Shown piece by piece: positions 18,225 to 47,206 of a stretch of 64,000 nt of DNA. Under the pieces are notes generated by a model, which worked only from the letters and a program-made list of their open reading frames with translations, ran no database searches and had not been told where the DNA came from. The DNA is taken from NCBI GenBank assembly GCA_044220545.1, contig JBGAQX010000024.1:1771-65770 (forward strand), read 5' to 3'. Both the position numbers and the translations under genes were made by a program. The stretch's first letter is position 1, and each line of letters opens with the position of its first letter. The stretch comes from Rhodocyclaceae bacterium (GTDB taxonomy: Bacteria; Pseudomonadota; Gammaproteobacteria; Burkholderiales; Rhodocyclaceae).

Positions 18225-18299
18225 GACTGGCCCCTTCTCACTCATTCCAATAATTTTTAGATTGATTAGAGCAAAGGATCAGGCAAAGATCAAGCCGGT

Positions 18300-21172: not shown

Positions 21173-21203
21173 GCCTCCGCTGGGCCGTCCCAAGGAGGCA
21201 TGC

Positions 21204-24324: not shown

Positions 24325-26339
24325 GGGCGGGCCACCATCAGAAGAACGATCAAGGTCACGAAGCTGTAGAGCAGGTAGATCGCGATGCGGCCGCCCTGCA
24401 CGCCGACGATCAGGCCGGACAGCCATTCCACCAGGCGCGCCACCGGCAGATAGAGCCAGTGCCAGAAATGATCCTCGACCTTGACGCTGTAGTAGGGCTT
24501 CTCGTCGCGAATGGTCGGGAAATGGCGCTCCATGCGGAACATCGGCTCGAAGATGCGCCGGATCGGCTGGCTGAAGCCCTCGGCGGTATCCTGGGCGCGC
24601 GGCCCCTGGAAGAAGTAGCCGCAGTCCCAGGCCGGCGAACGGCGCAGGCGGCCGTGGTAGAAGCGGCGCACCAGCCAGCGGCCGAGCAGCACCGAGGCGA
24701 TGATCACGGCCAGGAACACCAGCGGCTGGTAGCTGGCGCGGTCGGGCGAAATCGGCGCGAGCATCGCCCAGCCATGCTCGCGGACCTTGTCGGCCAGGCC
24801 GGCGCCCAGCAACTGCCGGGTGGTGGCGTCGATGACGCCGATCACCGTCGAAGGCAGCACCCCGAGCAACAAGGTCAACAGGGCCAGCCAGACCAGACCG
24901 ACCCGCTCCCAGGGGCCGGCGTCACGGGCGCCCTGGAGCGCCGGCTCGCGCATCTGGCCGAGAAAGACGATGCCGTAGAACTTGACCATGGCGAAGCCGG
25001 CCAGCGCCGCCACCAGGGCAATGACGGCGGCGGCCACCGGCACCACCATGTTGAGCCAGGAATGCGGCAGCCCCGGCGAGAACAGGAAGGCTTGCAGCAA
25101 CAGCCACTCCGAGACGAAACCGGACAGCGGTGGCAGGCCGGCGCTGGCGATGACGCCGGCCAGGGCCAGCCAGGCCACCCAGGGCATGCGATGGATCAGC
25201 CCGCCCAGCTTGCCCAGGCCGCGCTCGTGGGTGGCGTGGAGCACCGAGCCGGTGCACAGGAACAGCAGGCTCTTGAAGCCGGCATGGGCCAGGCAATGGT
25301 AGAGCACCGCCGTCATGGCCAGCGCCGCCAGCGCCTCCATGCGGTAGGCATGGAAGATCAAGGCCAGGCCGATGCCGACGGCCAGCAGGCCGATGTTCTC
25401 GATCGAGGAATAGGCGAGCAGTCGCTTCATGTCGCTCTGCACGGTACTGTAGAGCACGCCGAACAGCGCCGTCACCAGGCCGACGGCCAGCGCCACCACG
25501 CCCCACCACCAGAGCGGCGTGCCGACCAGATCGAAGCTCACCCGCAGCAGGCCGTAGATGGCCGTCTTGAGCATGACGCCGCTCATCATCGCCGACACCG
25601 GCGAGGGCGCCGCCGGATGCGCCTCGGGCAGCCAGACATGCACCGGCACCAGGCCCGCCTTGGCGCCGAAGCCGACCAGCGCCAGCAGGTAGGCGATCGA
25701 GGCCCAGAACGGCGACAGTTGTTGGGCGCGCATGCCGGCGAAGGTGTAGTCGCCAATTCCGCCCTGGCCGCCGGTCATGACGCCGAAGGAAAGCAGGATG
25801 GCGATGGCGCCGACGTGGGCGATCAGCAGGTAGAGATAGCCGGCGCGGCGGATCGCCTCGTGGCGATGATCGGTGGTGACCAGGAAGAATGACGACAGCG
25901 CCATGCTTTCCCAGGCGACCATGAAGGCGTAGGCGTCGTCGGCCAGCAAGACCATCAGCATGCTGGTCAGGAAGACGTGGTATTCGAGGCACAGCAGTCC
26001 GGGCGCCGTGCCCTCGCCCTGCCGGAAGTAGCCGGCGGCGTAGATGGAAATGCCCACCGAGACGAAGCCGAGCAGCAGCGCGAAGACGGCGGTCAGGGCG
26101 TCGAGCCGCAGGTGGAAGGGCAGCGTCGGCAAGCCGATGGCCAGCACCGCGGTTTCCGGCGGCCTGCCGAGATAACCGAGCGCGGTCAGGCCGATCATCA
26201 AGCCGATCAGCGCGCCGAGCGGGAAAAGCACCTTGCTGATGAAGCGCGTGTTGCGCGGCGCCGCCAGGCCCGCCAGGCCGATCGCCAGCCAGGCGCAGGC
26301 GGCAATCAGCAGGCTATCGATGGGCAGGAGGTTGGGCAT
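24321..26339 (-). CDS. HyfB / NuoL-type large antiporter-like membrane subunit
   Basis: 672 aa. PF00361-like core VPVHVWLPEAHPAAPSPVSAMMSGVMLKTAIYG. First gene of the six-gene block. Confidence 0.9.
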   Translation of the reverse strand: MPNLLPIDSLLIAACAWLAIGLAGLAAPRNTRFISKVLFPLGALIGLMIGLTALGYLGRPPETAVLAIGLPTLPFHLRLDALTAVFALLLGFVSVGISIYAAGYFRQGEGTAPGLLCLEYHVFLTSMLMVLLADDAYAFMVAWESMALSSFFLVTTDHRHEAIRRAGYLYLLIAHVGAIAILLSFGVMTGGQGGIGDYTFAGMRAQQLSPFWASIAYLLALVGFGAKAGLVPVHVWLPEAHPAAPSPVSAMMSGVMLKTAIYGLLRVSFDLVGTPLWWWGVVALAVGLVTALFGVLYSTVQSDMKRLLAYSSIENIGLLAVGIGLALIFHAYRMEALAALAMTAVLYHCLAHAGFKSLLFLCTGSVLHATHERGLGKLGGLIHRMPWVAWLALAGVIASAGLPPLSGFVSEWLLLQAFLFSPGLPHSWLNMVVPVAAAVIALVAALAGFAMVKFYGIVFLGQMREPALQGARDAGPWERVGLVWLALLTLLLGVLPSTVIGVIDATTRQLLGAGLADKVREHGWAMLAPISPDRASYQPLVFLAVIIASVLLGRWLVRRFYHGRLRRSPAWDCGYFFQGPRAQDTAEGFSQPIRRIFEPMFRMERHFPTIRDEKPYYSVKVEDHFWHWLYLPVARLVEWLSGLIVGVQGGRIAIYLLYSFVTLIVLLMVARP

Positions 26340-26451
26340 GGCGATCAGGAAACGCGAAGACCGATTCTAGCAGCGACACCACCGATCGACCGAGCCGCCG
26401 TCGATGCCAGATGGCGGAGGGCGGGCGTCGATTCCAGCCGCGGCGGCACCG

Positions 26452-26931
26452 CTAATCGGAATCCTTCGGCTTGCGCTGGAAGTCCAGCAACTTGTTGGCG
26501 AAGTATCGGTCGCCAAGCTCCGGGTCGATCGGATTGCCCTTCATATCGACCAGGGGCAGATTGAATTCGTTCCAGCCCCGCAGCCCGGTCTTCAGCGAGG
26601 TAACGTGCTGGTAGCCCATGCGTGCCAGCGTATGCGCGGCGAACACACTGCGACTGCCGGATCGGCAGACGACGACGATCTGCCGATCGCGCGCCTTGAC
26701 CAGCTCCGGCTCCGTCTCCTCGTGGTCCCATTCCACGGCTGTTTCCAGGATGCCACGCGGCACGTGTAGCGAGTTCTCGATGCGCATCGTGTCGTATTCC
26801 TGGTTCTCCCTGACATCCAGGAACAGGAGGTCGTCCCCGCTCTTCAATCTCTTCTCGACATCCCATGGAAAACACTCGTGGACCTCCGGCAGGATTTCCG
26901 CCACCAGGTCCTTGTAAGTCACTCGTTTCAT
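26452..26931 (-). CDS. Rhodanese-like domain protein directly upstream of the hydrogenase-like operon
   Basis: LFLDVRENQEY...VVVCRSGSRS active-site loop (CRSGSRS). Start taken at ATG 26931 (MKRVTYKDL). Confidence 0.8.
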   Translation of the reverse strand: MKRVTYKDLVAEILPEVHECFPWDVEKRLKSGDDLLFLDVRENQEYDTMRIENSLHVPRGILETAVEWDHEETEPELVKARDRQIVVVCRSGSRSVFAAHTLARMGYQHVTSLKTGLRGWNEFNLPLVDMKGNPIDPELGDRYFANKLLDFQRKPKDSD

Positions 26932-27180
26932 GGTCTCTTCACGGATTGGCCACTGATCGGCCAATCATAATCCGCAAATCGACAGGCGACATTTCGAGAG
27001 TACAGCGCGTTGTCGGGTCGCAGCCAGACGGCCGGAAGGGCAATTCACACAACTCGACCGAAACGGCCATTCAGGTACGGCCACTCAACTGGCAGCACCG
27101 TGCCCAATCCCGCCGGTCGAGGTTCTAAAAAGCGGACGGTCGCGTAGTCGGCTGGGCTTTCATTGCACGCGCGGTCAAAA

Positions 27181-27504
27181 TCAGGCGAGTGACTTCAATC
27201 CGTACTTTTCGACGACAGCAAGCATCTTCAGTGCGATGCCGCTTGGTTGCTTTGCTCCAGCTTCCCACTTCTGCACGGTAGATTCGCTGATATTCAGCAT
27301 CCTGGCAAAAACGGGCTGGCTCACGTGATTCTCCTCACGAATGCGCCGAATCCGCGCCGCCGTCAGGTTGGGAAGCTTGGCCTGGCACGCCACATCAAAT
27401 TCGCGCAGAGTTGTCTTGCTAATGGCGCCGACCTTGAATAGGGCTTTCGCCGAGCCGTGAATGGACTCAAAGGCGTCGCTCTTAAACTTTGGCTTTGTTG
27501 TCAT
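27181..27504 (-). CDS. XRE-family HTH antitoxin (HigA/NadS-like)
   Basis: C-terminal HTH HVSQPVFARMLNISESTVQKWEAG. Paired with the upstream toxin gene by a 23-nt overlap. Region has visibly lower G+C. Confidence 0.8.
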   Translation of the reverse strand: MTTKPKFKSDAFESIHGSAKALFKVGAISKTTLREFDVACQAKLPNLTAARIRRIREENHVSQPVFARMLNISESTVQKWEAGAKQPSGIALKMLAVVEKYGLKSLA

Positions 27505-27853
27505 TGCAGATCTCCGTTAATTCGCCGTCGCCGATAAGTTCCTTAACCTTGTCCGCGGACAGTTTCTCGTACACCTTTGCGAGCTTCCGGAATTCAACAA
27601 GCTCATCGTCATCAATGTTTTCCCGGTCGCTCTTGGCAAACACATATTGATATATCCAGTACCGCCCTCCCTTGGCCAGGATGATCGAGCGATGCATGTT
27701 GTTATTGATGCGCTTCTTGAAAACTCCACCGCCCAAGTCATCAGCTTGGCCAAGCATCACTTCCTTGATCGCCTCGCATAATTCCTGGTCGGTGATGTGA
27801 GCCTTCCTGGCCGCTTTCGCAAACCATGCGGTCTTGAATGTCCTTCCGGTCAC
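27482..27853 (-). CDS. RelE/ParE-superfamily toxin (COG4737-like)
   Basis: TFKTAWFAKAARKAHITD...GGGVFKKR...YVFAKSDRENIDDDEL matches this toxin family from memory. GTG 27853 was chosen because family members begin near (M)xTFKTxWF; the track start 27955 is TTG. Confidence 0.7.
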   Translation of the reverse strand: MTGRTFKTAWFAKAARKAHITDQELCEAIKEVMLGQADDLGGGVFKKRINNNMHRSIILAKGGRYWIYQYVFAKSDRENIDDDELVEFRKLAKVYEKLSADKVKELIGDGELTEICNDNKAKV

Positions 27854-28183
27854 ATTATCACCATGAATGATGGTAGCACCCAGTGCTACTGTTTTCAATT
27901 CCTTTCCCGCGAGAGCCAAAACATCATCGTGCCACCCAAACAATTGGAGAGCCAACCCAAAATGAAATGTGACGGCAACCGTCCGGTGCTGGCCGAATGC
28001 GGTAGTTCAGGTTGTTCGCCTCGGCAGGCCGTTCAGGTCCAGCAAGAGTCGATCACCCATTGATCCGCGACAGGTTCATCTATCGACAGCAGCCAGTCAC
28101 GGCAGCGAGGCCCCGCAGCCCCGCCCAAGTTGACTGCCACCATCCGTTCCCGGCTCACCCCCGGCGACGATGCGTTCCGGATA

Positions 28184-29656
28184 TCAGCCCAGCCGCGCCA
28201 CCCAGGCGGTGGCGGAGGCGCGCATGACATCGAGCAGGGTGGCGGGGAACAGGCCGAAGCCGATGACCAGGGCGGCGAAGACCAGCATCACGGCCAACTC
28301 GCGTGGCCGCAGGTCGTCGGCCTGGAGCACGGCCGGCTGGGTCGCGGGGCCGAAGAAGGCGCGCCGATACAGGCTCAGGAAGTAGGCGGCGCCAAGCACC
28401 ATGCCGACCAGCGCGGCCAGGCCGGCGCCGGCATGGGCCTGGAAGGTCGACATCAGGATCAGCAGTTCGGCCGGGAAGCCCGAGGTACCAGGCAGGCCCA
28501 TGCCGGCGAGGCCGTAGAGCAGGAAGAAGCTCGCCAGCCACGGCATGGTGCGCGCGACGCCGCCGAGACTGGCCACGTCGGTGGACCCGGTGCGCTGGTG
28601 CAGATGGCTGGTCAGAAGGAAGAGTCCGCCGGAGGCGATGGTGAAATTGAGCAATTGCAGCACCGCCCCTTGCAGGCCTTGCAGGTTGAACGACGCGATG
28701 CCCAGCACGACCAGGCCGACGTGCGAAAGGCTGGCATAGGCCAGCATGCGGCGCAGATTGGTCTGCGCCAGCGCCGCGGCGGCGCCGTGGAGGATGGCGA
28801 ACACGCCCAGTCCGGCCAGCAGCCAGTGCAACTCCTGCGCGGCCACCGGCGCCAGCGGCACGGCGAAGCGGATCAGGCCGAAGGCGCCCAGCTTCAAGCC
28901 GGTGACGATCGCGGCGATCGCGACCGGCCCTTCCATGGCCAGCAGCGGCAGCCAGGTATGCAAGGGCGCCAGCGGCACCTTGACGCCGAAGCCCAGCAAC
29001 AGCAGCGCGAACACCAGGTACTGGCCGATGGTCGGCAGCGGTGTGACCAGCAGGGTCGGCAGGTCGAACACCAGCGGGCCGCCGTCGTCGGCCGCGCCGA
29101 AGGCCAGCAGCAGGAAACCGAACAGCAGCACCGCGCCGCCGGCCAGCATCACCAGCGTGTACTTCACGGCGGCATGGCGGCGATTGGCGCCGACGCCCCA
29201 CAGGCTGACCAGGAAGTACAGCGGTACCAGGGTCAGCTCCCAGAACAGGAAGAACAACACCGTGTCGAGCGCGCAGAAGACGCCGAGAGTGGCCGTCTCC
29301 AGCATCATCAGCAGCGTGTAGTAAAGGCGCGGCAGGCTGTGCACGCCGTTCCACGAAGCCAGGATGACGCCGATGAAGAGCAGCGCCGTGGCGGGCAGGA
29401 ACAGGATGGCAATGCCATCGACGCCGACCAGATAATGGATGTCGAGGTCGGTAATCCAGTCGTGCTTCTCGACCAGTTGGAAGCCGGCCTGGCCGGGGTC
29501 GAAAACGACCACCGCGGCCAGGGCGATGGCCAGGTTCGCCAGCGCGGTGGCGAGGGCAACGGCGCGTGCCGTGTTGGCGCCCGGCACCAGCCAGGCCAGC
29601 GCGGCGCCGACGGGCAGCGTCAGGAACAGCAGCGAGAGCAGCGGCAAGGATTCCAT
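28184..29656 (-). CDS. NuoM/ND4-type proton-conducting antiporter-like subunit (third M/N-type gene of the DAB operon)
   Basis: FFLFWELTLVPLYFLVSLWG and PLHTWLP...EGPVAIAAIVTGLKLGAFG motifs. Start overlaps the upstream stop (TGATG). Confidence 0.9.
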   Translation of the reverse strand: MESLPLLSLLFLTLPVGAALAWLVPGANTARAVALATALANLAIALAAVVVFDPGQAGFQLVEKHDWITDLDIHYLVGVDGIAILFLPATALLFIGVILASWNGVHSLPRLYYTLLMMLETATLGVFCALDTVLFFLFWELTLVPLYFLVSLWGVGANRRHAAVKYTLVMLAGGAVLLFGFLLLAFGAADDGGPLVFDLPTLLVTPLPTIGQYLVFALLLLGFGVKVPLAPLHTWLPLLAMEGPVAIAAIVTGLKLGAFGLIRFAVPLAPVAAQELHWLLAGLGVFAILHGAAAALAQTNLRRMLAYASLSHVGLVVLGIASFNLQGLQGAVLQLLNFTIASGGLFLLTSHLHQRTGSTDVASLGGVARTMPWLASFFLLYGLAGMGLPGTSGFPAELLILMSTFQAHAGAGLAALVGMVLGAAYFLSLYRRAFFGPATQPAVLQADDLRPRELAVMLVFAALVIGFGLFPATLLDVMRASATAWVARLG

Positions 29657-31161
29657 CAGCCGTGATGTCCAAACCGGGCCGCCAGCACCTTGAGCGCCGG
29701 CTCAATCAGGTTGAGCCAGGGTTCGAAGTAGAAGCCCGCCAGCAGCAGCACCAACACGGCGATGCCGCCGACCACATATTCCATCGGCAGGGTGCGCTCC
29801 ATCGCCGCCAGGTCGGTGCCCTCCGCCGCCGGCGCCAGGAAGGCGCGCTGGAAGGCATATAGCAGGAAGCCGGCCGCCGCGACGTTGCCCAGCGCCGCCG
29901 CGACGGTGGGCAGGGCGCCGAAGCGCTCCATCGCCGCTTCGAGCACGAAGTGCACCGCGTCGAAGCCAGGTGTGCCGGGCATGCCGACGATCGACAGGCC
30001 GCCGACCAGGAAGGTCAGCGCGATGAAGGGAATCCGTTCGAACAGGCCGCCGAGCCGGGCGAGGTCGGTGGAATGGGCGCGCCGGAAGACGAAGCCGACC
30101 ATGAACAGCATCACCGTGACCGCCAGACCGAAGTTGACCGACAGCAGCACGGCGCCGATCAGGCCGGCCGGATGCAGGGTGAACAGGCCGATGACGATCA
30201 GGCTGGTGTGGCTGACCACGGCGAAGGACAGCAGGCGCCGCAAGTTGGTTTGCAGGAAGGCCAGGATGGCGGCGTAGAACACGCCGGTCATGGCGAAGCC
30301 GACGATGAAGTTCTGCCAGGCCAGCACGGCCTCCTCGGTCAGCGGCAGCAGGAAGCGCAGCATGCCGTAGATGCCGACCTTGACACCCAGCAGCAGCGAG
30401 GGGGCGATGGCGACCATGCCGCGCTGCGCGACGCTGGGCAGCCAGCCGTGCAGCGGAAACAGCGGTGTGCGCACCGCCAGGCCGTAGAACAGCAGGAAGA
30501 AGGCAACCGACTGGAAACGGCCTTGCGCGGGCACCTTGACCAGATCGAACAGGTCGAAGCTCCAGCGGCCGGTGACGTCGGCATGGCCCCAGGCGAGGAT
30601 GACCATGCCGGCGGCGAGCAGGGCGACGCCCACCGCCTGGAACTGGAGAAAGCGCGTCATGGCCAGGCTGCGATTCTCTTCGGTCGAGGTCGACCAGTGG
30701 CCGATCAGGTAGCCGGCCACGGCCAGCTCGGCCACCGACGCCAGGCTGAACCAGAGCAGGTTCATGGTCGCCAGCATGGACATCAGCGCCGCCTCGGCGA
30801 GCAGGATCAGCGCCATCAACCGGCCAGGCCGCGCCAGGCCGCGCACCAGGCCATACAGGGTCATCAGCACCGTGATCAGCGCCGCCAGCAGCACGAACAG
30901 GGCCGTGACGCCGTCGGCGCCGGCGTGATAGCCCAGCCACTCGATACGCTCCGCCGCCTGCATGGCCGCCGACCCGGCGTCGATGTGGCCGTAGAGAACG
31001 AAGGCCAGCGCCAGCACGGCCAGCGCCACCAGGCGGCCCAGCACCACGGCGGCGGCGCGATCGCCGAGCGCGAAGACGGCCGCCGCGCCGAACAGCGGCA
31101 GCAATTGCAGCACGGCGAGAATCGGCCATGCCGAATGGGCGGTCCAGGAGACTTCGGTCAT
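29656..31161 (-). CDS. Divergent NuoM/NuoN-type antiporter-like subunit
   Basis: PF00361-like core PLFPLHGWLPSVAQRGMVAIAPSLLLGVKVGIYGMLRF, with the TM7 Lys kept but the usual EAP acidic motif changed. TGATG overlaps at both ends. Confidence 0.85.
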   Translation of the reverse strand: MTEVSWTAHSAWPILAVLQLLPLFGAAAVFALGDRAAAVVLGRLVALAVLALAFVLYGHIDAGSAAMQAAERIEWLGYHAGADGVTALFVLLAALITVLMTLYGLVRGLARPGRLMALILLAEAALMSMLATMNLLWFSLASVAELAVAGYLIGHWSTSTEENRSLAMTRFLQFQAVGVALLAAGMVILAWGHADVTGRWSFDLFDLVKVPAQGRFQSVAFFLLFYGLAVRTPLFPLHGWLPSVAQRGMVAIAPSLLLGVKVGIYGMLRFLLPLTEEAVLAWQNFIVGFAMTGVFYAAILAFLQTNLRRLLSFAVVSHTSLIVIGLFTLHPAGLIGAVLLSVNFGLAVTVMLFMVGFVFRRAHSTDLARLGGLFERIPFIALTFLVGGLSIVGMPGTPGFDAVHFVLEAAMERFGALPTVAAALGNVAAAGFLLYAFQRAFLAPAAEGTDLAAMERTLPMEYVVGGIAVLVLLLAGFYFEPWLNLIEPALKVLAARFGHHG

Positions 31162-32705
31162 CAGAGGATCACCACGAAAGTCGCCACCACCAGCAGGATC
31201 ATGTAGCGCGGCCGTTCGACCAGTGCCTCGAGCACCAGCAGGTAGTCGCCGACGCTGCGCATGGCGCGCGTCACGGGTCCCGATCCCTGCTGCATGACCA
31301 GGCGCGTCTCGACCAGATGCAGGCGATCCGCCAGCCAGACCAGCAACCGGCCGGCCAGGCCGTGGCCGCGAATCACGCTGTCACCGCCCGGCGGGGCCTC
31401 GCCGCCGCGATGGCGCTCGGGCATGCCGACCAGATGGGCCAGCACGTTGTCGTCGAAGTCGCGCATGTCGCGGCCGATGGACGCGGTTGGCCGGATCAGC
31501 ACGCTTTGCGCCAGGTGATCGAGCCAGAAGCGCTGTAGCGCCGCTGTGTACAGCCATTGCCGCCCGGCCAGCCAGCCGGGCACCGGCGCCGCCTTCTCGC
31601 TGACGAGATGCATGTAGGAAGGCGCCAGCAGGAACTGGTAGGCGCGCCAGACGGTGTGCAGGCCCATGTGCCAGGCGGCCAGCTCGAACCAGCCCAGCCC
31701 GCAGGCGAGGAACATCAGCCCCACCTGCGTGGTGGTGGCGAACAGCAGCGAGGACTTGACGTCGGTCTGCGCAAGCCCCGCCAGCCAGCCGTACAGGGCG
31801 GTGAGGCCGCCGACCACGGCGAGATAGACCGGCACGTCGGGAACCTGCGTCAGTACCGGCGCCAGACGGATCACCAGATAAACGCCGGCATGCACCATCA
31901 CCGCGCCGTAGAAGATCGCCGACGAAGGCGTCGGCCCTTCCAGCGCCCGACCGATCCAGGAGGCGAACGGCAACTGCGCCGACTTGGCGAGGGCGGCGAC
32001 CAGGAAGCCGAGCAGAATCAGCCGCGCCGAGACCTTGTCGAAATGTCGAGTGTCGGCCGCCCAGGCGCTGATGCCGGACCACTCGACCGTGCCCAGCCAC
32101 CAGGCGGCGAGGCTGATGCCGAGGATGAAGCCGGCGTCGCCGATGCGGTTGGTGATGAAGGCCCACAGCGCGTTGCCGGTGGCCACCGGTCGGTCGTAGG
32201 CGTAGCCGATCAGCAGATAGGAGCTGACGCCGGCCAGCTCCCAACCGACGAAGGTGAGCACGGCGTTGCCCGCCAGCACGATCAGCAGCATGCCGGCCAG
32301 GAACAGTGACATGAAGATGAAGAAGCGATGAAAGCCAAGCTCGCGATGCAGATAGTTCCGTGAGAAGCGCAAGGTCACCACGCCGATCAGCGCCACCAGC
32401 GTAGCGTAGGACAACGACAGGCCATCGAGCACGAAGGAAATCGGCACCCTGAAGTCGCCGCTGGCGAACCAGTCGCCGATGACGAAATGGCCCGGCGCGC
32501 CCTCGACCAGCGCCAGCCCGTCGAGCCCGATCATGCCCAGTAGCGCCAGCCAGGCGGCACCCTCGGCCAGCCGGGCGGTCGGCGGCTCGCGGTCGTCGCT
32601 GTTGGTGCCCGGCGCCTGGCCGGCCATGACATAGACGACGATGCCGCCGGCCGCGAGCAGCGGCAACAAGGGAATCAGCATGGCGAGGATGAACAGGCAG
32701 TTCAT
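31161..32705 (-). CDS. dabB: NuoL/ND5-type antiporter-like subunit adjacent to DabA (DabB-type)
   Basis: ND5-type motifs FVGWELAGVSSYLLIGY, NRIGDAGF and LEGPTPSSAIFYGAVMVHAGVYL. 514 aa with no long lateral helix. ATGA overlap with the dabA stop. Confidence 0.85.
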   Translation of the reverse strand: MNCLFILAMLIPLLPLLAAGGIVVYVMAGQAPGTNSDDREPPTARLAEGAAWLALLGMIGLDGLALVEGAPGHFVIGDWFASGDFRVPISFVLDGLSLSYATLVALIGVVTLRFSRNYLHRELGFHRFFIFMSLFLAGMLLIVLAGNAVLTFVGWELAGVSSYLLIGYAYDRPVATGNALWAFITNRIGDAGFILGISLAAWWLGTVEWSGISAWAADTRHFDKVSARLILLGFLVAALAKSAQLPFASWIGRALEGPTPSSAIFYGAVMVHAGVYLVIRLAPVLTQVPDVPVYLAVVGGLTALYGWLAGLAQTDVKSSLLFATTTQVGLMFLACGLGWFELAAWHMGLHTVWRAYQFLLAPSYMHLVSEKAAPVPGWLAGRQWLYTAALQRFWLDHLAQSVLIRPTASIGRDMRDFDDNVLAHLVGMPERHRGGEAPPGGDSVIRGHGLAGRLLVWLADRLHLVETRLVMQQGSGPVTRAMRSVGDYLLVLEALVERPRYMILLVVATFVVIL

Positions 32706-35700
32706 GCCGCGCTCGCCTCCAGCGGTCTTTCGAGCAGCACCGGCGGCAGCGGCTCGCGCTCCCCGGCGAACCAGTCGGCCGACTGCCTGACGGTCTTCAC
32801 CTCGACCGGGCCCGACCAGGGTGCCCAGCCGCTGGCGGGATCGAACTGGTGGATGGCGCCGGTTTCCGGATCTTTTGCCGCGACGATCACCCAGCCGTTG
32901 CCGACCAGTTCCTGCAACGGTGGCTGGCGCTGGTAGACGGCGGTGATGATGTCGAGCGTCTGCTCGATCACCACCAGCAGGCGCATCGCCTCGTGGATCT
33001 CGATCATCTGTTTGGGCAGGCCGGTGCGCAAATCCGAACCGGCGCCCTGCATGACGCCGAAGTAGCCGGCGACGTTGTGCATGATCTTGCTGCCGCAGCC
33101 GAAGGCTTCGTTGTTCACCGTCGAGAAGAAATACTCGAGGTTGATGCCGGCGCCGACCGCGCCGTTGATCAGCAGGTGCCGTTCGAGCACCTTGCCTTCC
33201 GGGTCCTGGGTCGGATCGTAGGAGATCAGGAAGGCGCGCCGGTCGAAGTAGGCGCCGCGACTAATGGCGCGGCGACCGAAGAAGGCGCAGGCGTTGGTGA
33301 CGTGGCCGAGTTCCGGGCGCGGCTGCGAGAAGTCGTTGCGGCGCCCCCAGACGTGGGCCAGCGCGCCGTCCTTGCCGATGGACAGCGGCGCCGAATAGAG
33401 GCGGCGGCAGCGTTCCTGGGCATGGGCGCCAGCGGCCTCGGCCAGCGCGCGATCCACTTCGGCGACGGCGCCCCGCAGCGACGCCGGCACGTCCTCGGCG
33501 TCGTACCAGGTGATGAGGTCGTCGGCGGTGTTGTGTTCGCCGGCGAGGAACCACGTCGATTCGGGCACGGCGATGCCGCGCTCCCTGATCAGCGCGCGCA
33601 CCTCGGGGCGGTTGGCCATGGCGCAGAACAGTCGCGCGTTGGGGCCGGAGTGGCGGCCCGAGCAGGCGCCGCAATCGTAGGCCGCCATGTGCGGATTGTT
33701 GGTGCTGTTGGAGCCGTGGCCCATGATCACCACCAGCGGCGCGAAGTCCCTGGTCAGGCCGAGGTTGGTGAGGAAGCCGGCGATGCGCTCGGCCTGCTCG
33801 GCGTCGGTAAAGCCCTGGCGCGGCTGCTCGGGCGTCGCCGGCGCCGCCGGGTCGGCGGCGTTGAGGTCCAGCCGCGTCGGCACCGCCAGCTCGAAGCCGC
33901 GCCGCAGCGCGGTGTTGAGGCTGCCGAGCGCGGCCGGCGCCAGCGAGCGCAGCAGCAGCGTGGCCAGCGCGACCGGCGCCGCCAGCGCGGTGAGCAGCGT
34001 GCCGGCGGCGATGTCGCGGCGCGTGACCTGATGGAGGCCATCCTGCCAGCGCAGGCGGCGCGCATTGCGGCGACGGTGCTCGGCCGCCGTCGCCTCGGCG
34101 CCGGCTCTCGGCACCTCATGCACGTCGTGCGAGGGCACGATCACCGTCGGCACCACCGGGCACAACGCGGTCGGCTCGCGGTCGTCGAGGCCGTAGTAGT
34201 TCTGGAACACGGCGAAGTGCGCGGCGCCGCCAAGCGTTTCGAGCCGGGGATTCACTTCCTCAAGGTGGCGGCGCATGCCCTCCTCGCGATCGTCCATGCA
34301 GAACACCAGTTGAGCCAGCGGCCCCTGCCGGTGGCCCCGCCAGCGCCCGTGATTGGCCGTCAGGCCGGCGAAGATCTGCTGCCGATAGTGGCGTTCGTAG
34401 GCGTTGAGCCAGAGAAAGCCGCGCTGGTGCTCGTCGAGTTCGGCCAGACAGGCGAGCAGCGCTTCGGCGCCGGGGCGGCCCAGGGCGCGCAGCTCGCCAC
34501 CGGGAATGCCGAGGTGCTGGGCGAGCAGGAACAATGGCCACGCCGAGCGCGTCAGTCCGTGGCTGGCGGTCTGCTCGGCACCGGGCGCGTTGCGCCAGTT
34601 CTCGATGTGGCCGGCCAGCCATTGCCAGCGGTCGTCCGACCGCCCCAGGGCCGTATCGCCGGGTGCCGGCAGGTGCGGCTCGATCAGGTCGAGCAGCCAC
34701 TCCGGCAGCCCGTCGGCCCCGCCGTCGCCACGTTCGCCAGCGCCGCCGCTGGCGTGGCGCACCCAGAGCTCGGCCGGGTGGCGGGCGAAGTAGCCACCCA
34801 GCGCCGCCAGGTTCGCCTCGACGCCCCAGTGACGGCGGGTGATGTCCGTTGCGACCAGGCGCTCAAGCACCAGGCGCACCGCGAGGTAATCCATCATCGC
34901 CACCGGCACGTCCGATGTGCCGGCATAGCCAGGGTGGTTGTGGCGCCACAGGAACATGCCCGACCAGCCAGGCAGTTCCAGCGCCAGGCGTTCGAGATAG
35001 CCCGGCCAGCGTTGTTCCGGCAGGCCCAGCCGCGTCAGTTCGGCGACCACGGCGTCGAGGGCATTCTCGGGCAAGGCCGCCACTTGCTGACGCGCCTCGG
35101 GCAGCGTATCGAGCAGCCAGGCGATGTCCCGCGCCACGCTCCGCCGCCAGGCGGTGTAGAAGCCGAGCGGCCGCGCCGGGTTGTGCCAGGGCGCCAGGCC
35201 CTGGTCGAGATGACCAGCCAGGTGGCGCAGCAGCGCCGGCCGTACCGCTTCGAGGGCATCCTCCTCGGTCAACACCTTGAGCAGCGCGCCCAGGGTAGTG
35301 GAACAACCAAGCTGCCCGACCAGTTCGTCCCACAGGGCGGCGGCACGCACCGCCAGCGCCGGATGCGCATCGCCGGCCGCGCCATAGCCCTCCTCCGCCT
35401 CGCGGGTCGACAGCTCGAGCAGCTCCTCGGGATGACCGAAGCCATGATCGAGTCCGAGGACATCCAGGCAGGCGGCCCACAGTTCCCCAACCAGCCGCGG
35501 CTCGCCGTCGCCGCCGGCGAGCAAGCGCGTCCGGGCGGCGGGAGACAGGTCGTCCTGCCAGCGGCGCAGCGCCTGCTTCTCATCGATCTCCCATTTGAGC
35601 CGGGCCAGCGGAATCGGCGCCAAGGAGCGAACGAAACTGGCCCGAAGCACCTCGCGCCGACGCACCGGACCAAGCGCCGTGGTCGCCAGGACGGCCTCCG

Positions 35701-35998
35701 GATCCAGTTGCCAGGCGGCGGCCAGTTGCATCAGCGCGGCATCGAGGTCGCTGTCGTCGATGCGGCCGGCGCGATGGAACTCGCGCAGGCTGGCCTCGGG
35801 CAGCCAGGCGCGCGCGCCGGTCAGCCGGCTGGTGGCGGCCAGCGCCTCGGGAAAGGGCAGATGCTGAAAACCGTGCAGGGTGTTGTGATGCACGAAGTCG
35901 CGGATCGAGGCCTGGCTCGGCAACACGTGTTCCAGGTGATGCACGCAGTCGGCGAGGCGGTCGCGGATGTCGGTCGAACGATCTTCGTGGCCGCTCAC
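32702..35998 (-). CDS. dabA: DUF2309/UPF0753 protein (DabA-type putative vectorial carbonic anhydrase subunit)
   Basis: 1098 aa. N-terminal IRDFVHHNTLH. Putative Zn-site motifs QLVFCMDDRE (Cys codon 34298-34300), VIMGHGSNS and AYDCGACSGRHSGPNAR. GTG start 2 nt after the upstream stop. Confidence 0.85.
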   Translation of the reverse strand: MSGHEDRSTDIRDRLADCVHHLEHVLPSQASIRDFVHHNTLHGFQHLPFPEALAATSRLTGARAWLPEASLREFHRAGRIDDSDLDAALMQLAAAWQLDPEAVLATTALGPVRRREVLRASFVRSLAPIPLARLKWEIDEKQALRRWQDDLSPAARTRLLAGGDGEPRLVGELWAACLDVLGLDHGFGHPEELLELSTREAEEGYGAAGDAHPALAVRAAALWDELVGQLGCSTTLGALLKVLTEEDALEAVRPALLRHLAGHLDQGLAPWHNPARPLGFYTAWRRSVARDIAWLLDTLPEARQQVAALPENALDAVVAELTRLGLPEQRWPGYLERLALELPGWSGMFLWRHNHPGYAGTSDVPVAMMDYLAVRLVLERLVATDITRRHWGVEANLAALGGYFARHPAELWVRHASGGAGERGDGGADGLPEWLLDLIEPHLPAPGDTALGRSDDRWQWLAGHIENWRNAPGAEQTASHGLTRSAWPLFLLAQHLGIPGGELRALGRPGAEALLACLAELDEHQRGFLWLNAYERHYRQQIFAGLTANHGRWRGHRQGPLAQLVFCMDDREEGMRRHLEEVNPRLETLGGAAHFAVFQNYYGLDDREPTALCPVVPTVIVPSHDVHEVPRAGAEATAAEHRRRNARRLRWQDGLHQVTRRDIAAGTLLTALAAPVALATLLLRSLAPAALGSLNTALRRGFELAVPTRLDLNAADPAAPATPEQPRQGFTDAEQAERIAGFLTNLGLTRDFAPLVVIMGHGSNSTNNPHMAAYDCGACSGRHSGPNARLFCAMANRPEVRALIRERGIAVPESTWFLAGEHNTADDLITWYDAEDVPASLRGAVAEVDRALAEAAGAHAQERCRRLYSAPLSIGKDGALAHVWGRRNDFSQPRPELGHVTNACAFFGRRAISRGAYFDRRAFLISYDPTQDPEGKVLERHLLINGAVGAGINLEYFFSTVNNEAFGCGSKIMHNVAGYFGVMQGAGSDLRTGLPKQMIEIHEAMRLLVVIEQTLDIITAVYQRQPPLQELVGNGWVIVAAKDPETGAIHQFDPASGWAPWSGPVEVKTVRQSADWFAGEREPLPPVLLERPLEASAA

Positions 35999-36000
35999 GG

Positions 36001-37464
36001 TCAGCCCCCGAAAAACCGCGCCAGCCGGTCCACCGAGGCGCCGACCAGCGCCAGCGCCGGTGCCGGATGGAAGCCGACGGCAAGGATGGCCAGCGAGAGC
36101 ACGCCGGCGGCGGCCATCTCGTTTCGATCGAGATCGGCGACGGCGCGCATCTTGTCGCCCACCGGGCCGGTAAACAGGCGGCCCGCCGTGCGCAACGCGT
36201 AGGCCGCGCCGATCAGCAGGGACAGCGAGAGCAGCACCATCCAGCCGCCCCAGCGCTGGAAGCCGCCGACCATCGCATGCAGCTCGGCGATGAACCCGGC
36301 GGTGCCGGGCAGGCCGACGGTGGCGGTCAGGGCCAGGACCATGAAGAAGGCGAAGCGCGGCATGGTCCGCACCAGCGAGGAGTAATCGCCGATGTCGCGG
36401 GTACGGGTGCGCGCGTGGAGCAGCCCGACCAGCAGGAACAGCACGCCGGCAACCAGGCCGTGCGCCACCATCTGCATCACCGCGCCGGTCAGGCCCGCCG
36501 GGTTGAGGGTGGCCAGCCCGAGCAGCACCACGCCCATATGCGACACGGAAGCATAGGCCAGCATGACGATCAGATCGCGCTGGCGCCAGGCCAGAATGCC
36601 GCCGTGGAGCAAGGTGACGAAGGCCAGCACCGCCAGCCAGCCGTGCAGCGACCAGGCCGCGCCCGGCAGCGTCTCGATGGCGCGCAACAGGCCGTAGCCG
36701 CCCATCTTGAGCAGGATGCCGGAGGAGATCAGCGGCACGGCGCTCGGCGCCTCGGCATATACGAGCGGCGCCCAGCCATGCATGGGGAATACCGCCATCT
36801 TGACGCCGAAGCCGATGAACAGTCCGGCGAAGATCCAGACCTGGGTGGCGAGCGGCAGGCCGCGCGCCGCCGCGGCGATGGCGCTCATGTCGAAGCTGTG
36901 GGTGGGTACGGCGTCGTAGAGCAGCAGTAGCGCGATCAGCATGAACACCGAGCCGCCCATGGTGTAGAGCACGAAGTTGAGCGCCGCCTTCTGCCGCCGT
37001 TGGCGGTTCTGGCCGCCGAGGCGGTCGATCAGGAAGAAGAGCGGGATCAGCGTTAGTTCCCAGAAGACGTAGAACAGCGACCAGTCGCGGGCCATGAACA
37101 CGCCGAGCACGGCGGTTTCGAGCAACAGCAGCAGCGAAAAGTAGAGCTTGGCGCCCTTCGTGACGCCGCTCGAGGCGACCACGGCGACCGGCATCAAGAG
37201 CGTGGCCAGCAGCACCAGCGGGAAGGAAAAGCCGTCGACGCCCAGCGAGAAGCTCGAGCCGAGGCGCTCATGCCAGGCATGGGTCTCGTAGAGCTGGATG
37301 GCCGCCTGGGTCGGGTCGAATTGCCCCAGCAACGACCAGGCAAAAACCCCCACCAGGCAGGTGGCGGCCAGCGCCGTATGCCGCAGCAGCGCGAAATTGC
37401 GCGCCGGCAGCAAGGCCACGACCACGGCACCGAACAGGGGAAGAAGCAATAGGATGCGGAGCAT
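36001..37464 (-). CDS. NuoM/ND4-type antiporter-like subunit (first M-type gene of the DAB operon)
   Basis: Start at ATG 37464 (MLRILLLLPLFG). FYVFWELTLIPLFFLI and PMHGWAPLVYAEAPSAVPLISSGILLKMGGYG. The track ORF to 39654 is an alternative-frame extension through sulP. Confidence 0.9.
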   Translation of the reverse strand: MLRILLLLPLFGAVVVALLPARNFALLRHTALAATCLVGVFAWSLLGQFDPTQAAIQLYETHAWHERLGSSFSLGVDGFSFPLVLLATLLMPVAVVASSGVTKGAKLYFSLLLLLETAVLGVFMARDWSLFYVFWELTLIPLFFLIDRLGGQNRQRRQKAALNFVLYTMGGSVFMLIALLLLYDAVPTHSFDMSAIAAAARGLPLATQVWIFAGLFIGFGVKMAVFPMHGWAPLVYAEAPSAVPLISSGILLKMGGYGLLRAIETLPGAAWSLHGWLAVLAFVTLLHGGILAWRQRDLIVMLAYASVSHMGVVLLGLATLNPAGLTGAVMQMVAHGLVAGVLFLLVGLLHARTRTRDIGDYSSLVRTMPRFAFFMVLALTATVGLPGTAGFIAELHAMVGGFQRWGGWMVLLSLSLLIGAAYALRTAGRLFTGPVGDKMRAVADLDRNEMAAAGVLSLAILAVGFHPAPALALVGASVDRLARFFGG

Positions 37465-37502
37465 TTGGACAGGCTCGCCGGGGTTCGCGCGGGCTGCGTT
37501 GC

Positions 37503-39623
37503 CTATTTCTTCAGCAGGGTCGAGGCATGTTCCTTGCCAGCCGCCGACGCCGCCGCGTAGGCCGCCTCGATGGCTTGGTCGGCCGTGGCGAAGATATGCG
37601 GCCGGCCGACGTAATCGAACAGGCCGGTGGCGTGCATGACGTCGAGCACCTGTTTCTTCAGGCCGGAGAACATCACCGTAATGCCGCCGGCGCGCAGGCG
37701 TTCGACCAGGTGGTGCACCACTTCCTCGCCCGAGGCATCCAGCTCGTTGATGCCGTCGCCGACCACCAGCAGGTAGGAGACTTGCGGATTGGCGGCCACG
37801 GCTTCGAGGATGGCATCCTCGAAATAGGCAACGTTGGCGAAGTAGAGGCGACCGTCGAAACGCACGGCGACCACGACCTTCGATTCCGGCAGCTTGTTCA
37901 CCTTGACGTCGCGCAGCGTGCCATCGTGATAGCGGCCGAGGATGGCGACGCGCGGCGACATGGTGCGGTAGAGGTACAGACCGATGGCGAGGCCGGCGCC
38001 GACCATGATGCCCTTGTCGAGATGCGGCGCGAAAGCGAGCGTGGCGACGAAGGTGACGACGGAAGCGATGCCATCGTGCTTGTTGGCCTGCCAGGCATGC
38101 TTGATGGCGCCGAAATTGATCAGGCCGATCACCGCCATGATGATCACGGCGGCGAGCACCGCCTGCGGCAGGTGGTAGAGCAGCGGCGTCAGGAACAACA
38201 GGGTCAGCAGGACGAAGATTGCCGTGATGACCGAGGACATGCCGGTCTTGGCCCCGGCATTGATATTCACCGCCGAGCGCGAGAAGGAGCCCGACACCGG
38301 GAAGGACTGGGTCATGGCGCCGACGATGTTCGACAGGCCCTGGCCGATCAGCTCCTGGTTGGGGTCGATCTTGTCCTTGGTCTTGGCGGCGATGGCCTTG
38401 GCGATGGAGATGGCCTCCATGAAGCCCACCAGCGAGATGACGATGGCGGCGGAAAGCAGGCTGCCGATCATGTCCCAGGAAAACTTGGGAATGCCGATCG
38501 AGGGCAGGCCTTCGGGAATCTTGCCCACCACCTCGCCGCCGCCGGTGAGCTTGAGGCTGCCGCCGGTGGCCTTGGCGATGCGCCAGACGTTGCCGTCGGA
38601 ACTCGTCCCGGCCGGCAGTTTGCCCTGGGCGTAGAACCTGGCCGGCTGACCGTCGGCGCCAGCCACCTGTTCCAGGACAAAGCTGCGCACCGCGCGGTTG
38701 CGGCGGCGATTCTCGTCCTCGCGATCCTTGAGCTGGAGATTCAGCAACTCGATCTCGTAATGCAGCGTCGCAACGTCGTGCCCGACCTCGCCGCCGGCCT
38801 TTTGCAGCTTCTTCAACTCGCCGCTCTTGGCGGCGATCTGCTCGGCAAGCTCCCTGGCCCGCGCCTCGGTGCGGACGAACTCGGCCAGCAGGGTTTGCGC
38901 CTCCGGCTCGGCGATCTGCTCCAGCGTCGCCGTGGCGTTGCGCTCGAAGCCGATTTGCCAGGAAACGATCGTGGTCACGGCGACGGCGATCAGCACGCCC
39001 GGCAGTTTGGGCGCCTTCTTGCGAATGACCCACATGATGGCGATGGCCGCCACGCCCATGACCAGCGTCGGCAGGTGAGTGTCGCCGACCAGCTTGGCCA
39101 CGCCCCAGATGTCGTTGATGAAGGACTCGGAACGGCCCATGGGCACGCCGATGATCTTGTTGACCTGCGACAGGCCGATGATCATGGCCGCCGCGTTGGT
39201 GAAGCCGACGATGACCGGGTGGGAGAGGAAATTCACCACCACGCCGAGCTTGAATACACCCAGCGCCAACTGGACGATGCCGACCATCAGCGCCAGCATG
39301 ATCGCCAGGACGACGAACTGTTCGGAGCCCGGCGCGGCCAGCGGCGTCAACGACGAAGCCGTCAGGAGCGAGGCCACCGCTACCGGCCCGGTGCCAAGCT
39401 GATTGGAGGACCCCCACAGCGCCGCCACCGCCACCGGCAGGAAGGCGGCATAGAGGCCGTAGTACGGCGGCAGGCCGGCCAGTTGCGCGTAGGCCATCGA
39501 CTGCGGTACCAGCACCAGGGCCACCGTCAAGCCAGCGAGGAAGTCGGCGCGGAAGAGAGTCCCCGAATAGGGAAACCAGCGCAAAAAAGGCAGAAACCGT
39601 TGCAACAAGGGAGGGAGTGTCAT
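37503..39623 (-). CDS. SulP-family anion transporter with C-terminal STAS domain and an approximately 140-aa helical insertion
   Basis: N-terminal SulP signature GLTVALVLVPQSMAYAQLAGLPPYYGLY. STAS-like C-terminus. Charged coiled-coil-like segment about aa 226-365, between SWQIGFE and VVGKIPEGLP. Confidence 0.85.
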   Translation of the reverse strand: MTLPPLLQRFLPFLRWFPYSGTLFRADFLAGLTVALVLVPQSMAYAQLAGLPPYYGLYAAFLPVAVAALWGSSNQLGTGPVAVASLLTASSLTPLAAPGSEQFVVLAIMLALMVGIVQLALGVFKLGVVVNFLSHPVIVGFTNAAAMIIGLSQVNKIIGVPMGRSESFINDIWGVAKLVGDTHLPTLVMGVAAIAIMWVIRKKAPKLPGVLIAVAVTTIVSWQIGFERNATATLEQIAEPEAQTLLAEFVRTEARARELAEQIAAKSGELKKLQKAGGEVGHDVATLHYEIELLNLQLKDREDENRRRNRAVRSFVLEQVAGADGQPARFYAQGKLPAGTSSDGNVWRIAKATGGSLKLTGGGEVVGKIPEGLPSIGIPKFSWDMIGSLLSAAIVISLVGFMEAISIAKAIAAKTKDKIDPNQELIGQGLSNIVGAMTQSFPVSGSFSRSAVNINAGAKTGMSSVITAIFVLLTLLFLTPLLYHLPQAVLAAVIIMAVIGLINFGAIKHAWQANKHDGIASVVTFVATLAFAPHLDKGIMVGAGLAIGLYLYRTMSPRVAILGRYHDGTLRDVKVNKLPESKVVVAVRFDGRLYFANVAYFEDAILEAVAANPQVSYLLVVGDGINELDASGEEVVHHLVERLRAGGITVMFSGLKKQVLDVMHATGLFDYVGRPHIFATADQAIEAAYAAASAAGKEHASTLLKK

Positions 39624-39843
39624 CTCGGGCGGTCGCGGCGGCGCTTGGCGTCACCGTCTTAACGCAATCTTGACGGAGCTTGCCATATTAGCAGGCGACG
39701 ATACTCACCCATCCAAAAGGGTTTTTATTTTCCGATCAGTGGAGCGTATTCCGCATTGCAGCATGCATTCCGCCGGAAGGACGCGATGGGGCGGCGGTCG
39801 GTCGGGCTTCTTGTAGAATGCGCTCCCTTAACGAGGAGCACTC

Positions 39844-40326
39844 ATGCCCGCCGCAAACACGTTCCGCAGCATCTTCGCCTGGATGATGGGCTTTGTCGCC
39901 CTGGTCTGGATCTGGGCGGTGGCCATCATCATGGCTTGGCCGGCGGAAAAGAATCCCCAATGGGAACCGGACTTGCGGCTGGTCGCCCACTGCGCCAACG
40001 GCGAGGCGTGCAGCGTGCCCTACGGCCAGTTGGCGGAGGCCAGGGCCAAGGGTATCTACAAGAGCCTGGTGCCGCCCGAGCCACTCGGCGAAGTGATGGA
40101 AGCCGATGCCTGGCTAAGCTGGAAGACGGCTACCGGCGAGCCCTGGCAGTACGAGGTCAAGCGGTCCTCCTGGCATTTCCAGACCACGCTGCGCTATCGC
40201 TTCGATGGCGAGACGCCAGTGCTGGTGGGCCTGAATCGCTACGACAGCGGGATACTGCTCTATGCGATTCCCGCCGCCTTCTTCACCATCCTCGGGCTGT
40301 TCCTGCGGACCATGCGCGGCGGCTAG
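39844..40326 (+). CDS. Hypothetical membrane protein (N- and C-terminal TM segments)
   Basis: GAGGAG ribosome-binding site 5 nt upstream of the ATG. 160 aa. No family recognised. Confidence 0.55.
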   Translation: MPAANTFRSIFAWMMGFVALVWIWAVAIIMAWPAEKNPQWEPDLRLVAHCANGEACSVPYGQLAEARAKGIYKSLVPPEPLGEVMEADAWLSWKTATGEPWQYEVKRSSWHFQTTLRYRFDGETPVLVGLNRYDSGILLYAIPAAFFTILGLFLRTMRGG

Positions 40327-46748: not shown

Positions 46749-46800
46749 CCCAGCCCCCTCACACTTCGGTTCCATGTACACCGCAACAAGGAGCCGGAGC

Positions 46801-47205: not shown

Positions 47206-47206
47206 C

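Follow-up and report, generated by a model that had tools for sequence, protein, structure and literature searches.

To which molecular machine do four antiporter-like membrane proteins belong when their genes are packed into one operon with the gene for a carbonic-anhydrase-like protein? The question is raised by a stretch of 64,000 nucleotides (nt) from a Rhodocyclaceae bacterium (assembly GCA_044220545.1, contig JBGAQX010000024.1, positions 1,771-65,770 of the forward strand), which we refer to as 'the window', and in whose own positions all coordinates below are given. Six genes on its minus strand encode, in order, a SulP-STAS transporter; M1, a NuoM-type subunit; DabA and DabB, relatives of the two proteins of the DAB inorganic-carbon pumps; and M2 and M3, two further NuoM-type subunits. 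The DAB systems in the literature are a heterodimer, DAB2, described as membrane-potential-coupled (PMC13144422), and a heterotrimer, DAB1 (10.64898/2026.05.01.722082). The first structures of these two- and three-subunit forms date from 2026, and how ion flow is coupled to one-way CO2 hydration in DABs is still open. We consider it probable that the region discussed here encodes a conserved five-subunit variant of these pumps: a vectorial carbonic anhydrase, driven by the proton-motive force, on a multi-channel membrane arm and without a redox module.

The operon and its conserved core

In this genome the operon begins with the gene for the SulP-STAS protein (37503-39623; 706 amino acids (aa)). 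It is followed by M1, an antiporter-like protein of the NuoM/ND4 type (36001-37464; 487 aa); DabA, a β-carbonic-anhydrase-like protein of the PF10070/DUF2309 family, predicted to be cytoplasmic, of the long form and with a GTG start (32702-35998; 1098 aa); DabB, a truncated NuoL/ND5-type protein (31161-32705; 514 aa); M2, a divergent, full-length NuoM-type protein (29656-31161; 501 aa); and M3, again an antiporter-like protein of the NuoM/ND4 type, which closes the conserved cassette (28184-29656; 490 aa). All six lie where a first-pass annotation of the window had placed them, and the junctions, read from SulP to M3, are exactly as it described: a 38-nt gap, a 2-nt gap, an ATGA overlap in which the stop codon of dabA meets the start codon of dabB, and two TGATG overlaps. 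Judged from the sequence, the cassette genes are translationally coupled and, as part of the reading that we favor, SulP-STAS is probably co-transcribed with M1-DabA-DabB-M2-M3 in this genome. The motifs pointed out earlier (FCMDD, MGHGS, YDCGACSG, NRIGDAG and FWELTL) are all present, and the four families expected for these proteins, PF10070, PF00361, PF00916 and PF01740, were all matched in our profile searches (Pfam and NCBIfam), so that the picture of DabA embedded among four PF00361 proteins in a single operon agrees with the domain scans.

The guanine plus cytosine (GC) content of the window is ∼0.65-0.71, apart from a patch at 26001-28000 where it is only 0.587. High GC produces long spurious open reading frames (ORFs), including many antisense ones of >100 aa. 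An ORF of 1217 aa (36001-39654, minus strand), which overlaps SulP in another frame, is a read-through artefact of this kind; the true gene there is M1. Scanning 26800-40000 for promoters and terminators returned no more than the counts expected from shuffled sequence; matches to the sigma-54 promoter pattern were likewise at chance level, and none lay upstream of SulP.

The arrangement is not peculiar to this organism. A scan with one genome per species yielded 558 relatives; the best 80 loci were fetched and annotated locally with the window proteins as queries, and the locus counts given below refer to the evaluable loci among those best 80 of 558. Rhodocyclaceae, Sulfuricellaceae, Thiobacillaceae and other metagenome-assembled genomes (MAGs) contain many DabA homologs of ∼1060-1145 aa with an identity of ≥50%. 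The order M1-DabA-DabB-M2-M3 is exact in 57 of the 58 loci with enough flanking DNA, down to a DabA identity of 44%; the sole exception is a long-read MAG (L017) from which M2 was not recovered. A DabB partner is seen wherever the locus extends far enough to include it, orthologs of M1-M3 are conserved in ∼57 species, and across loci each paralog finds its best match in its own ortholog in the window. Among the loci examined, the cassette is known from Beta- and Gammaproteobacteria, its carriers being Rhodocyclaceae, Sulfuricellaceae, Thiobacillaceae, Ca. Thiodiazotropha, Sedimenticolaceae, Thiotrichaceae, Methylococcaceae, Acidiferrobacterales, Ca. Accumulibacter and Sulfuritortus. Overlapping or near-abutting genes recur in Sulfuritortus calidifontis and in GCA_030824115 (locus L003), but what follows the cassette differs: in Sulfuritortus calidifontis all six genes are present and unrelated genes come next, whereas in GCA_030824115 overlapping codons carry the cassette on into a spermine-synthase-like gene and genes resembling hyfB, hyfC, hyfE and hyfF. 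Since the order of the five genes is fixed in 57 of 58 loci and the flanks vary, we take the conserved unit to be a five-gene cassette, M1 to M3. SulP-STAS leads the operon here, as had been noted, but it is not a constant partner; of 63 evaluable loci, 28 have an ortholog immediately upstream of M1 and 40 have one somewhere in the locus. It is a frequent accessory, not a fixed component.

DabA

The first-pass annotation had made its reading depend on the 1098-aa protein belonging to PF10070, and it does: the match scores 761 bits (expectation value 1.5e-228) and covers the whole model, 1-747. PF10070 is also the only family matched by DabA; no match to the Cup-type (CupA/CupB) family was found. 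Against the solved DabA2 chain of Halothiobacillus neapolitanus (9rd0_A) the score is 235 bits, with FCMDDREE aligned to FCIDVRSE and the GHGS...DCGAC region aligned as well. In this alignment the catalytic residues C351, D353, H524 and C539 of DabA2 correspond to C567, D569, H761 and C776 of the window protein, and C567, D569, R571, H761, C776 and C779 are invariant in all 81 sequences of the clade. DabA is thus predicted to carry a complete β-carbonic-anhydrase zinc site of the DabA2 type. Its single strongly hydrophobic segment is a hairpin, aa 661-694, in a region that aligns poorly with residues 407-487 of DabA2; from its position, we infer that this is where the membrane-inserting finger, or elbow, motif known from DAB2 and DAB1 is located.

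DabB

DabB contains PF00662 and PF00361, but the NuoL model is matched over positions 6-356 of 615 only. The protein is laid out as transmembrane helices (TM) 1-11, then helical segments that are not transmembrane, and one terminal TM; nothing in it is homologous to TM12-16 of NuoL. Equivalents of NuoL E144, D178, K229 and H338 are kept in 72 of 72 DabB sequences and that of H334 in 62, and two substitutions are invariant: NuoL K342 is replaced by Arg and H254 by Tyr, each in 72/72. By these residues DabB is predicted to be a NuoL-type half-channel, formed by TM1-11, with the TM5 Asp, the TM7 Lys and the TM11 His. An AlphaFold2 model of DabB (mean predicted local distance difference test score, pLDDT, 80) is in keeping with this layout, its TM1-11 core superposing on NuoL chains at 2.1-2.8 Å over ∼370 columns. 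The C-terminal helices at 394-426, 450-470 and 477-496, and the TM at 499-513 that follows them, are modeled with low confidence. A second, weak match pairs aa 365-427 of DabB with residues 551-614 of NdhF, which suggests that this part resembles the region around the NdhF lateral helix. In phmmer comparisons DabB scores 196 bits with NdhF1, 173-186 with NuoL, 111 with NdhF3 and 106 with DabB2 (9rd0_B); by this ranking of scores, as distinct from a tree, it falls outside the DabB1/2 clade of Desmarais et al.

M1, M2 and M3

The three remaining membrane subunits had been described, together with DabB, as one ND5-type and three ND4/ND2-type proteins. The ND5-type assignment of DabB stands; the other three are all of the NuoM/ND4 type, and none is of the ND2 type. 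Each exceeds the cut-off (263.8 bits) of the NuoM subfamily model TIGR01972, M1 with 434 bits and M3 with 443 bits, and M2, with 269.5 bits, just. NuoN and Hyf models score far below NuoM models, those for NuoN staying under their own cut-off, and the cassette has no NuoN-type subunit. The best matches of M1 in the PDB are the ND4/NuoM chains of complex I (263-232 bits), with MrpD at ≤102 bits; the best match of M2 is the NuoM chain 8e9g_M (159 bits).

The proton-path residues, numbered here by E. coli NuoM, separate M2 from the other two. All 77 orthologs of M1 keep the equivalents of E144, K234, K265, H322, H348 and E407. M3 is the same in 63 of 63, except that H348 is Phe throughout (63/63). 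Among the 66 orthologs of M2, E144 has become Ala, Val or Leu and E407 Ala or Val; H348 is Phe; K234 is Arg in all 66; and K265 is kept in all 66. In other words, the glutamates of TM5 and TM12 have given way to hydrophobic residues and the TM7 Lys to Arg, while the central Lys and His persist. The statement that every one of these proteins has the TM7 Lys therefore applies to M1 and M3 and fails for M2. Since M2 is degenerate in this way, the cassette would provide three channel-competent subunits (DabB, M1 and M3) and one that is probably structural, or serves in coupling.

Pairwise identity among M1, M2 and M3 is just 28-40%, which makes them about as distant from one another as each is from E. 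coli NuoM; they are hence old, separately maintained paralogs. We considered whether they might be recent tandem duplicates, or copies in decay, and rejected this because of the same 28-40% identity and because their signature residues are invariant across 63-77 species.

Relation to known systems

The nearest characterized relative is DAB2 of H. neapolitanus (9rd0, 9rd8 and 9rd9). Common to both are a PF10070 DabA with an identical Cys/Asp/Arg/His/Cys active-site pattern; a translationally coupled, NuoL-like PF00361 partner whose TM1-11 core matches NuoL; a hydrophobic hairpin where the finger motif is expected; and the lack of redox subunits. They differ in that the window DabA is distant (235 bits) and has ∼270 extra residues, that the window DabB is closer to NdhF1 and NuoL and has no TM12-14, that dabA precedes dabB in the window, and that three conserved NuoM-type subunits, and often SulP, are added here. 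DAB1, from Thermocrinis albus and H. neapolitanus, shares with the cassette a third membrane subunit beside DabB. This subunit, DabC, sits at the NuoM position next to the NuoL-like DabB, is hydrophobic at the proton-residue sites, and is essential (10.64898/2026.05.01.722082). DabC aligns structurally with the NuoM helices that lie beside NuoL, and M2 is likewise of the NuoM type and hydrophobic at the acidic sites of TM5 and TM12; unlike DabC, M2 is a full-length NuoM that keeps its central Lys and His, and it is accompanied by two further, competent NuoM subunits, M1 and M3. By this analogy, M2 is a possible full-length counterpart of DabC.

The cyanobacterial complexes NDH-1MS and NDH-1MS' (CupA/CupB with NdhF3/NdhD3 and NdhF4/NdhD4) resemble the cassette in principle, for they too place a zinc-dependent, CO2-hydrating protein on NuoL- and NuoM-type subunits and act as vectorial carbonic anhydrases. 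CupA and CupB are unrelated to PF10070, however; the cyanobacterial complexes are driven by the redox module of NDH-1, of which the cassette has none; and M1 and DabB score higher with NdhD1 and NdhF1 than with NdhD3 and NdhF3 (6tjv chains). NuoM- or MrpD-type additions also occur in the 2M complex I of Nitrospira, the green complex I of rhizobia and Complex_I_3 of Ca. Manganitrophus. In such variants the added subunits lengthen the membrane arm and raise the ion stoichiometry, and extensions of the lateral helix accommodate them (PMC9040806). Those are full redox enzymes, with NuoA/H/J/K/N and the Q-module, whereas the cassette has a carbonic-anhydrase-like head and no NuoN-type subunit. More generally, the make-up of complex I (NuoL/M/N plus NuoA/H/J/K and the Q-module) is not what the cassette encodes: its antiporter-like proteins are a single NuoL type, truncated, and three of the NuoM type, and no NuoA, NuoH, NuoJ or NuoK gene lies inside it. 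Genes resembling those of NuoH, NuoCD and NuoB are confined to the separate Hyf-like cluster described below.

Mrp antiporters (Mnh/Pha) are, like the putative complex, redox-free assemblies around PF00361 subunits. They consist of MrpA and MrpD together with the small proteins MrpB, C, E, F and G, and no such small subunits are encoded here; with intergenic gaps of ≤38 nt, the cassette leaves no ORF room for small Mrp or Nuo subunits. Mrp models reach ≤150 bits with M1-M3 and ≤183 bits with DabB (MrpA-type), against cut-offs of 542-1104. On both counts, missing small subunits and low model scores, we reject an Mrp antiporter as the identity of the cassette. Four antiporter-like subunits in tandem had been taken as the hallmark of Mrp and of complex I membrane arms. 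Four are indeed present, but Mrp has two such subunits and standard complex I three, so the cassette exceeds both.

The five-subunit form is thus a widespread, uncharacterized variant of the DABs that differs from the described DabAB and DabABC, which upholds the original suggestion of a departure from the heterodimer. In the literature we found no characterized DAB with several NuoM subunits, no 'DAB3', and no mention of either in papers on symbionts or Accumulibacter; there is a single note, from 2017, in the COGNAT paper (Klimchuk et al., PMC5700660). It records that COG1008 (NuoM) and COG0659 (SulP) are frequent neighbors where ybcC lies upstream of the nuoL homolog, in a group termed 'clade C', and speculates that more membrane subunits move more ions. 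The arrangement of clade C, with ybcC before the nuoL homolog and with NuoM and SulP, is that of the present cassette. The record is one of neighborhood only, predates the known carbonic-anhydrase function of DabA, and contains no orthology, residues, distribution or experiment. The earlier impression that no characterized system has this architecture holds, then, but because of the 2017 note the five-subunit arrangement is not categorically new. Desmarais et al. (2019) excluded genes of divergent operon structure from their tree of DabB.

These relationships matter for several reasons. With the same catalytic head as the minimal DABs and a row of two intact NuoM subunits and one degenerate one, the cassette amounts to a natural experiment in ion stoichiometry. 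It is likely to shed light on where the enigmatic DabC came from and what it does, and is a possible evolutionary bridge between complex I arms, the cyanobacterial Cup complexes and the minimal DABs. The multi-NuoM form would surprise most DAB specialists, and gives them a handle on coupling, stoichiometry and DabC alike. Ca. Thiodiazotropha, the symbionts of lucinid clams, are among the carriers, and genes for carbon acquisition may be mis-annotated in the carriers as 'NADH dehydrogenase subunits'. Finally, for those who engineer DABs into crops or industrial CO2-fixing hosts, the variant may provide a pump with a higher gear.

Proposed function

If the five proteins form one complex, DabA would dock on DabB, as it does in the solved DAB2 and DAB1 complexes, and M2, M3 and M1 would stand in a row beside DabB, much as NuoM and NuoN stand beside NuoL. 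M2 may stand in for DabC, which is a small structural subunit, and act as a structural or coupling spacer; we suggest this role because DabC, which is likewise hydrophobic at its proton-path sites, is nonetheless essential. The amphipathic C-terminal helices of DabB and its terminal TM may clamp the row together, like the lateral helix, which is longer in complex I variants with extra pumping subunits. As many as three competent channels would let protons run down the proton-motive force, and this flow would be coupled to the hydration of cytoplasmic CO2, in one direction, to bicarbonate. With more channels for each catalytic site the ratio of ions to CO2 would be higher, and that in turn would allow bicarbonate to be accumulated more strongly, or the pump to work at low membrane potential. 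SulP, where present, would probably move bicarbonate, or a counter-anion, alongside.

Several points weigh against this proposal. The proposed assembly, the order of its subunits and their stoichiometry are modeled on the DAB1 and DAB2 structures and on complex I. Should M2 be the immediate neighbor of DabB, the relay of charges toward M3 and M1 would be broken at TM12 of M2, where the residue is hydrophobic. The C-terminal region of DabB, to which we assign the part of a clamp, has a pLDDT of 41-74 in the AlphaFold2 model. DabB is nearer to NuoL and NdhF1 than to DabB2, and so stands outside the DabB1/2 clade, and details of the coupling may therefore differ. Some of the hosts may be heterotrophs, and no RuBisCO or carboxysome genes occur in the window; in consequence, a role in concentrating CO2 is not established.

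Could the machine run the other way? It would then be an ion pump or a cation/proton antiporter, concerned with membrane potential or with pH and Na+ homeostasis, in which downhill interconversion of CO2 and bicarbonate at DabA drives or gates the export of ions. Antiporter-like subunits are reversible in principle, as is generally accepted for complex I and Mrp, and many carriers of the cassette come from sediment, biofilm and animal-symbiont samples, where we assume CO2 to be high. A scheme of this type was proposed in PMC5700660, with an exergonic YbcC reaction driving ion export, of one ion or of several depending on how many membrane subunits there are, and the original name 'Mps' points the same way. 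We nevertheless think it unlikely. Every characterized relative (DabAB, DabABC and MpsAB) supplies inorganic carbon and rescues carbonic-anhydrase-free E. coli; DabA has the same catalytic residues as DabA2; and Mrp small subunits are missing, with Mrp models scoring far below NuoM models. A bicarbonate-forming pump driven by the proton-motive force remains the reading that we prefer.

The neighboring Hyf-like cluster

A second cluster of genes, overlooked in the first-pass description, lies on the same strand and starts 1.2 kb downstream of the cassette. Its genes, all on the minus strand and identified by Pfam and BLASTP unless noted, are those of a HyfB-like PF00361 protein (24321-26339; 672 aa), a HyfC/NuoH-like protein (23368-24324), a HyfE-like protein (22706-23371), a HyfF-like PF00361 protein (21255-22706), a HyfG-like protein in which NuoC and NuoD are fused (19586-21193) and a HyfI/NuoB-like protein (18994-19515). 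They are flanked by genes for a rhodanese (26452-26964) and a DsrE protein (17865-18245), both minus strand and found by Pfam. BLASTP pairs the six core proteins one-to-one with E. coli HyfB, C, E, F, G and I at 25-45% identity; no HyfA-, HyfD- or HyfH-type genes occur in the cluster. The [NiFe] motifs of E. coli HyfG, RVCGICGFAHS and DPCYSCTDR, read RVSGDSTCAYA and NLSYSGVDL here, so that all four cysteines are gone, although the HyfI-like small subunit retains its Fe-S cluster cysteines. The loss of the four [NiFe] cysteines makes this an 'Ehr'-type, hydrogenase-related complex, and for the same reason we reject an active [NiFe] hydrogenase next door. The flanking rhodanese and DsrE genes hint at a sulfur-linked redox role. 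An ORF of 176 aa at 26345-26875 (minus strand) is in the wrong frame; the true gene at that place is the rhodanese.

With this cluster, six PF00361 genes lie within ∼18 kb of the window, and their closeness raises the question of which complex M1-M3 serve. Of 50 evaluable loci, only 4 have the Hyf-like cluster beside the cassette and 46 have the cassette without it, from which we conclude that the extra NuoM genes belong to the DAB system. As a general explanation, M1-M3 as parts of the Hyf-like complex can be rejected on that count, and also because the cluster has HyfB- and HyfF-type subunits of its own. It is probably a separate Ehr-type complex, linked to the DAB in a few lineages only.

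Between the two clusters, in the low-GC patch (0.587, against 0.65-0.71 in its flanks), a toxin-antitoxin pair separates M3 from the rhodanese: a RelE-family toxin (27482-27955, minus strand; PF06296, 121 bits) and a helix-turn-helix antitoxin (27181-27504, minus strand; PF01381, 35 bits). The pair is not part of the DAB system. The spot looks like an insertion hot-spot for toxin-antitoxin genes, splitting here an operon that is continuous in GCA_030824115. The closest relative, 94% identical, has a different toxin-antitoxin pair, of the HigB type, at the same spot (L005/L006, 17969-18653). A HipA-type toxin kinase gene (12867-14126, minus strand) adds to the toxin-antitoxin content of the region.

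The proximity of the two clusters invites a different proposal: that the DAB and the adjacent, NiFe-less Hyf-like module form a redox-coupled supercomplex, a proteobacterial analog of NDH-1MS/CupA in which electron transfer, and not the proton-motive force alone, drives CO2 hydration. Here the clusters are on the same strand, 1.2 kb apart, with only the low-GC toxin-antitoxin insertion between them; along the run from the cassette of GCA_030824115 into its HyfB/C/E/F-like genes, stop and start codons overlap; the clusters adjoin in L017 and L039, too; and the Fe-S cysteines of the small subunit are retained. Yet adjacency is confined to 4 of 50 loci, in L039 the two clusters are in convergent orientation, and in Sulfuritortus the full cassette is followed by unrelated genes. 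Moreover, with two antiporter-like subunits of its own and a one-to-one match to HyfB/C/E/F/G/I, the Hyf-like cluster looks self-sufficient. We regard the supercomplex as improbable. Equally improbable, in our estimation, is a bolder form of the idea, that in this organism and a few Rhodocyclaceae-like lineages the DAB arm and the Ehr module are one machine, with electron transfer possibly linked to a sulfur carrier and invented independently of NDH-1MS, and that, more broadly, the five-subunit cassette may be the ancestor of DabAB and DabABC, M2 having shrunk to DabC.

Least probable of all is mere co-location, with DabAB as the usual heterodimer and M1-M3 as spare or alternative NuoM subunits of complex I, or as a separate transporter sharing the operon: M1-M3 do all pass the NuoM cut-off and are nearer to genuine complex I ND4/NuoM than to any specialized clade, but 57 of 58 loci, with DabA identities as low as 44%, place DabA-DabB in the fixed position after M1 and before M2-M3, the genes overlap at their start and stop codons, the family-wide substitutions of M2 (Arg in 66/66) are atypical of complex I NuoM, and no antiporter-like subunit is known to work as a lone monomer.

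SulP and other genes of the region

The SulP protein matches PF00916 with 358 bits, PF01740 (STAS) with 55 bits and TIGR00815 with 427 bits (cut-off 380). It has the SulP plus STAS architecture, but scores only 137 bits with the BicA equivalog model NF050096, whose cut-off is 880. A hydrophilic, partly coiled-coil-like insertion of ∼131 aa (aa ∼230-360) splits its transmembrane domain. The insertion occurs, with a length of 129-143 aa, in all 27 full-length orthologs from DAB-cassette loci, and Pfam has no match for it. Many related loci (L001, L003, L008 and others) have, upstream of the cassette, a second and divergently oriented gene for a SulP-STAS-Usp fusion of 863-879 aa that is ∼34% identical. 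In L003 SulP and M1 are separated by a Pyr_redox_2 gene and one for a hexapeptide-repeat protein, possibly γ-carbonic-anhydrase-like. A two-component system is also encoded upstream of the cassette in many of the related loci, with a sigma-54 activator in Sulfuritortus and OmpR-type regulators in others.

On the plus strand of the window, at 46774-48299 and 45626-46261, genes for DUF2202 and DUF1924 proteins, a dihaem cytochrome c and a cytochrome b561 lie beside that of an OmpR-type response regulator. Together they make up a small module for electron transfer in the periplasm, and no connection with the DAB cassette is apparent.

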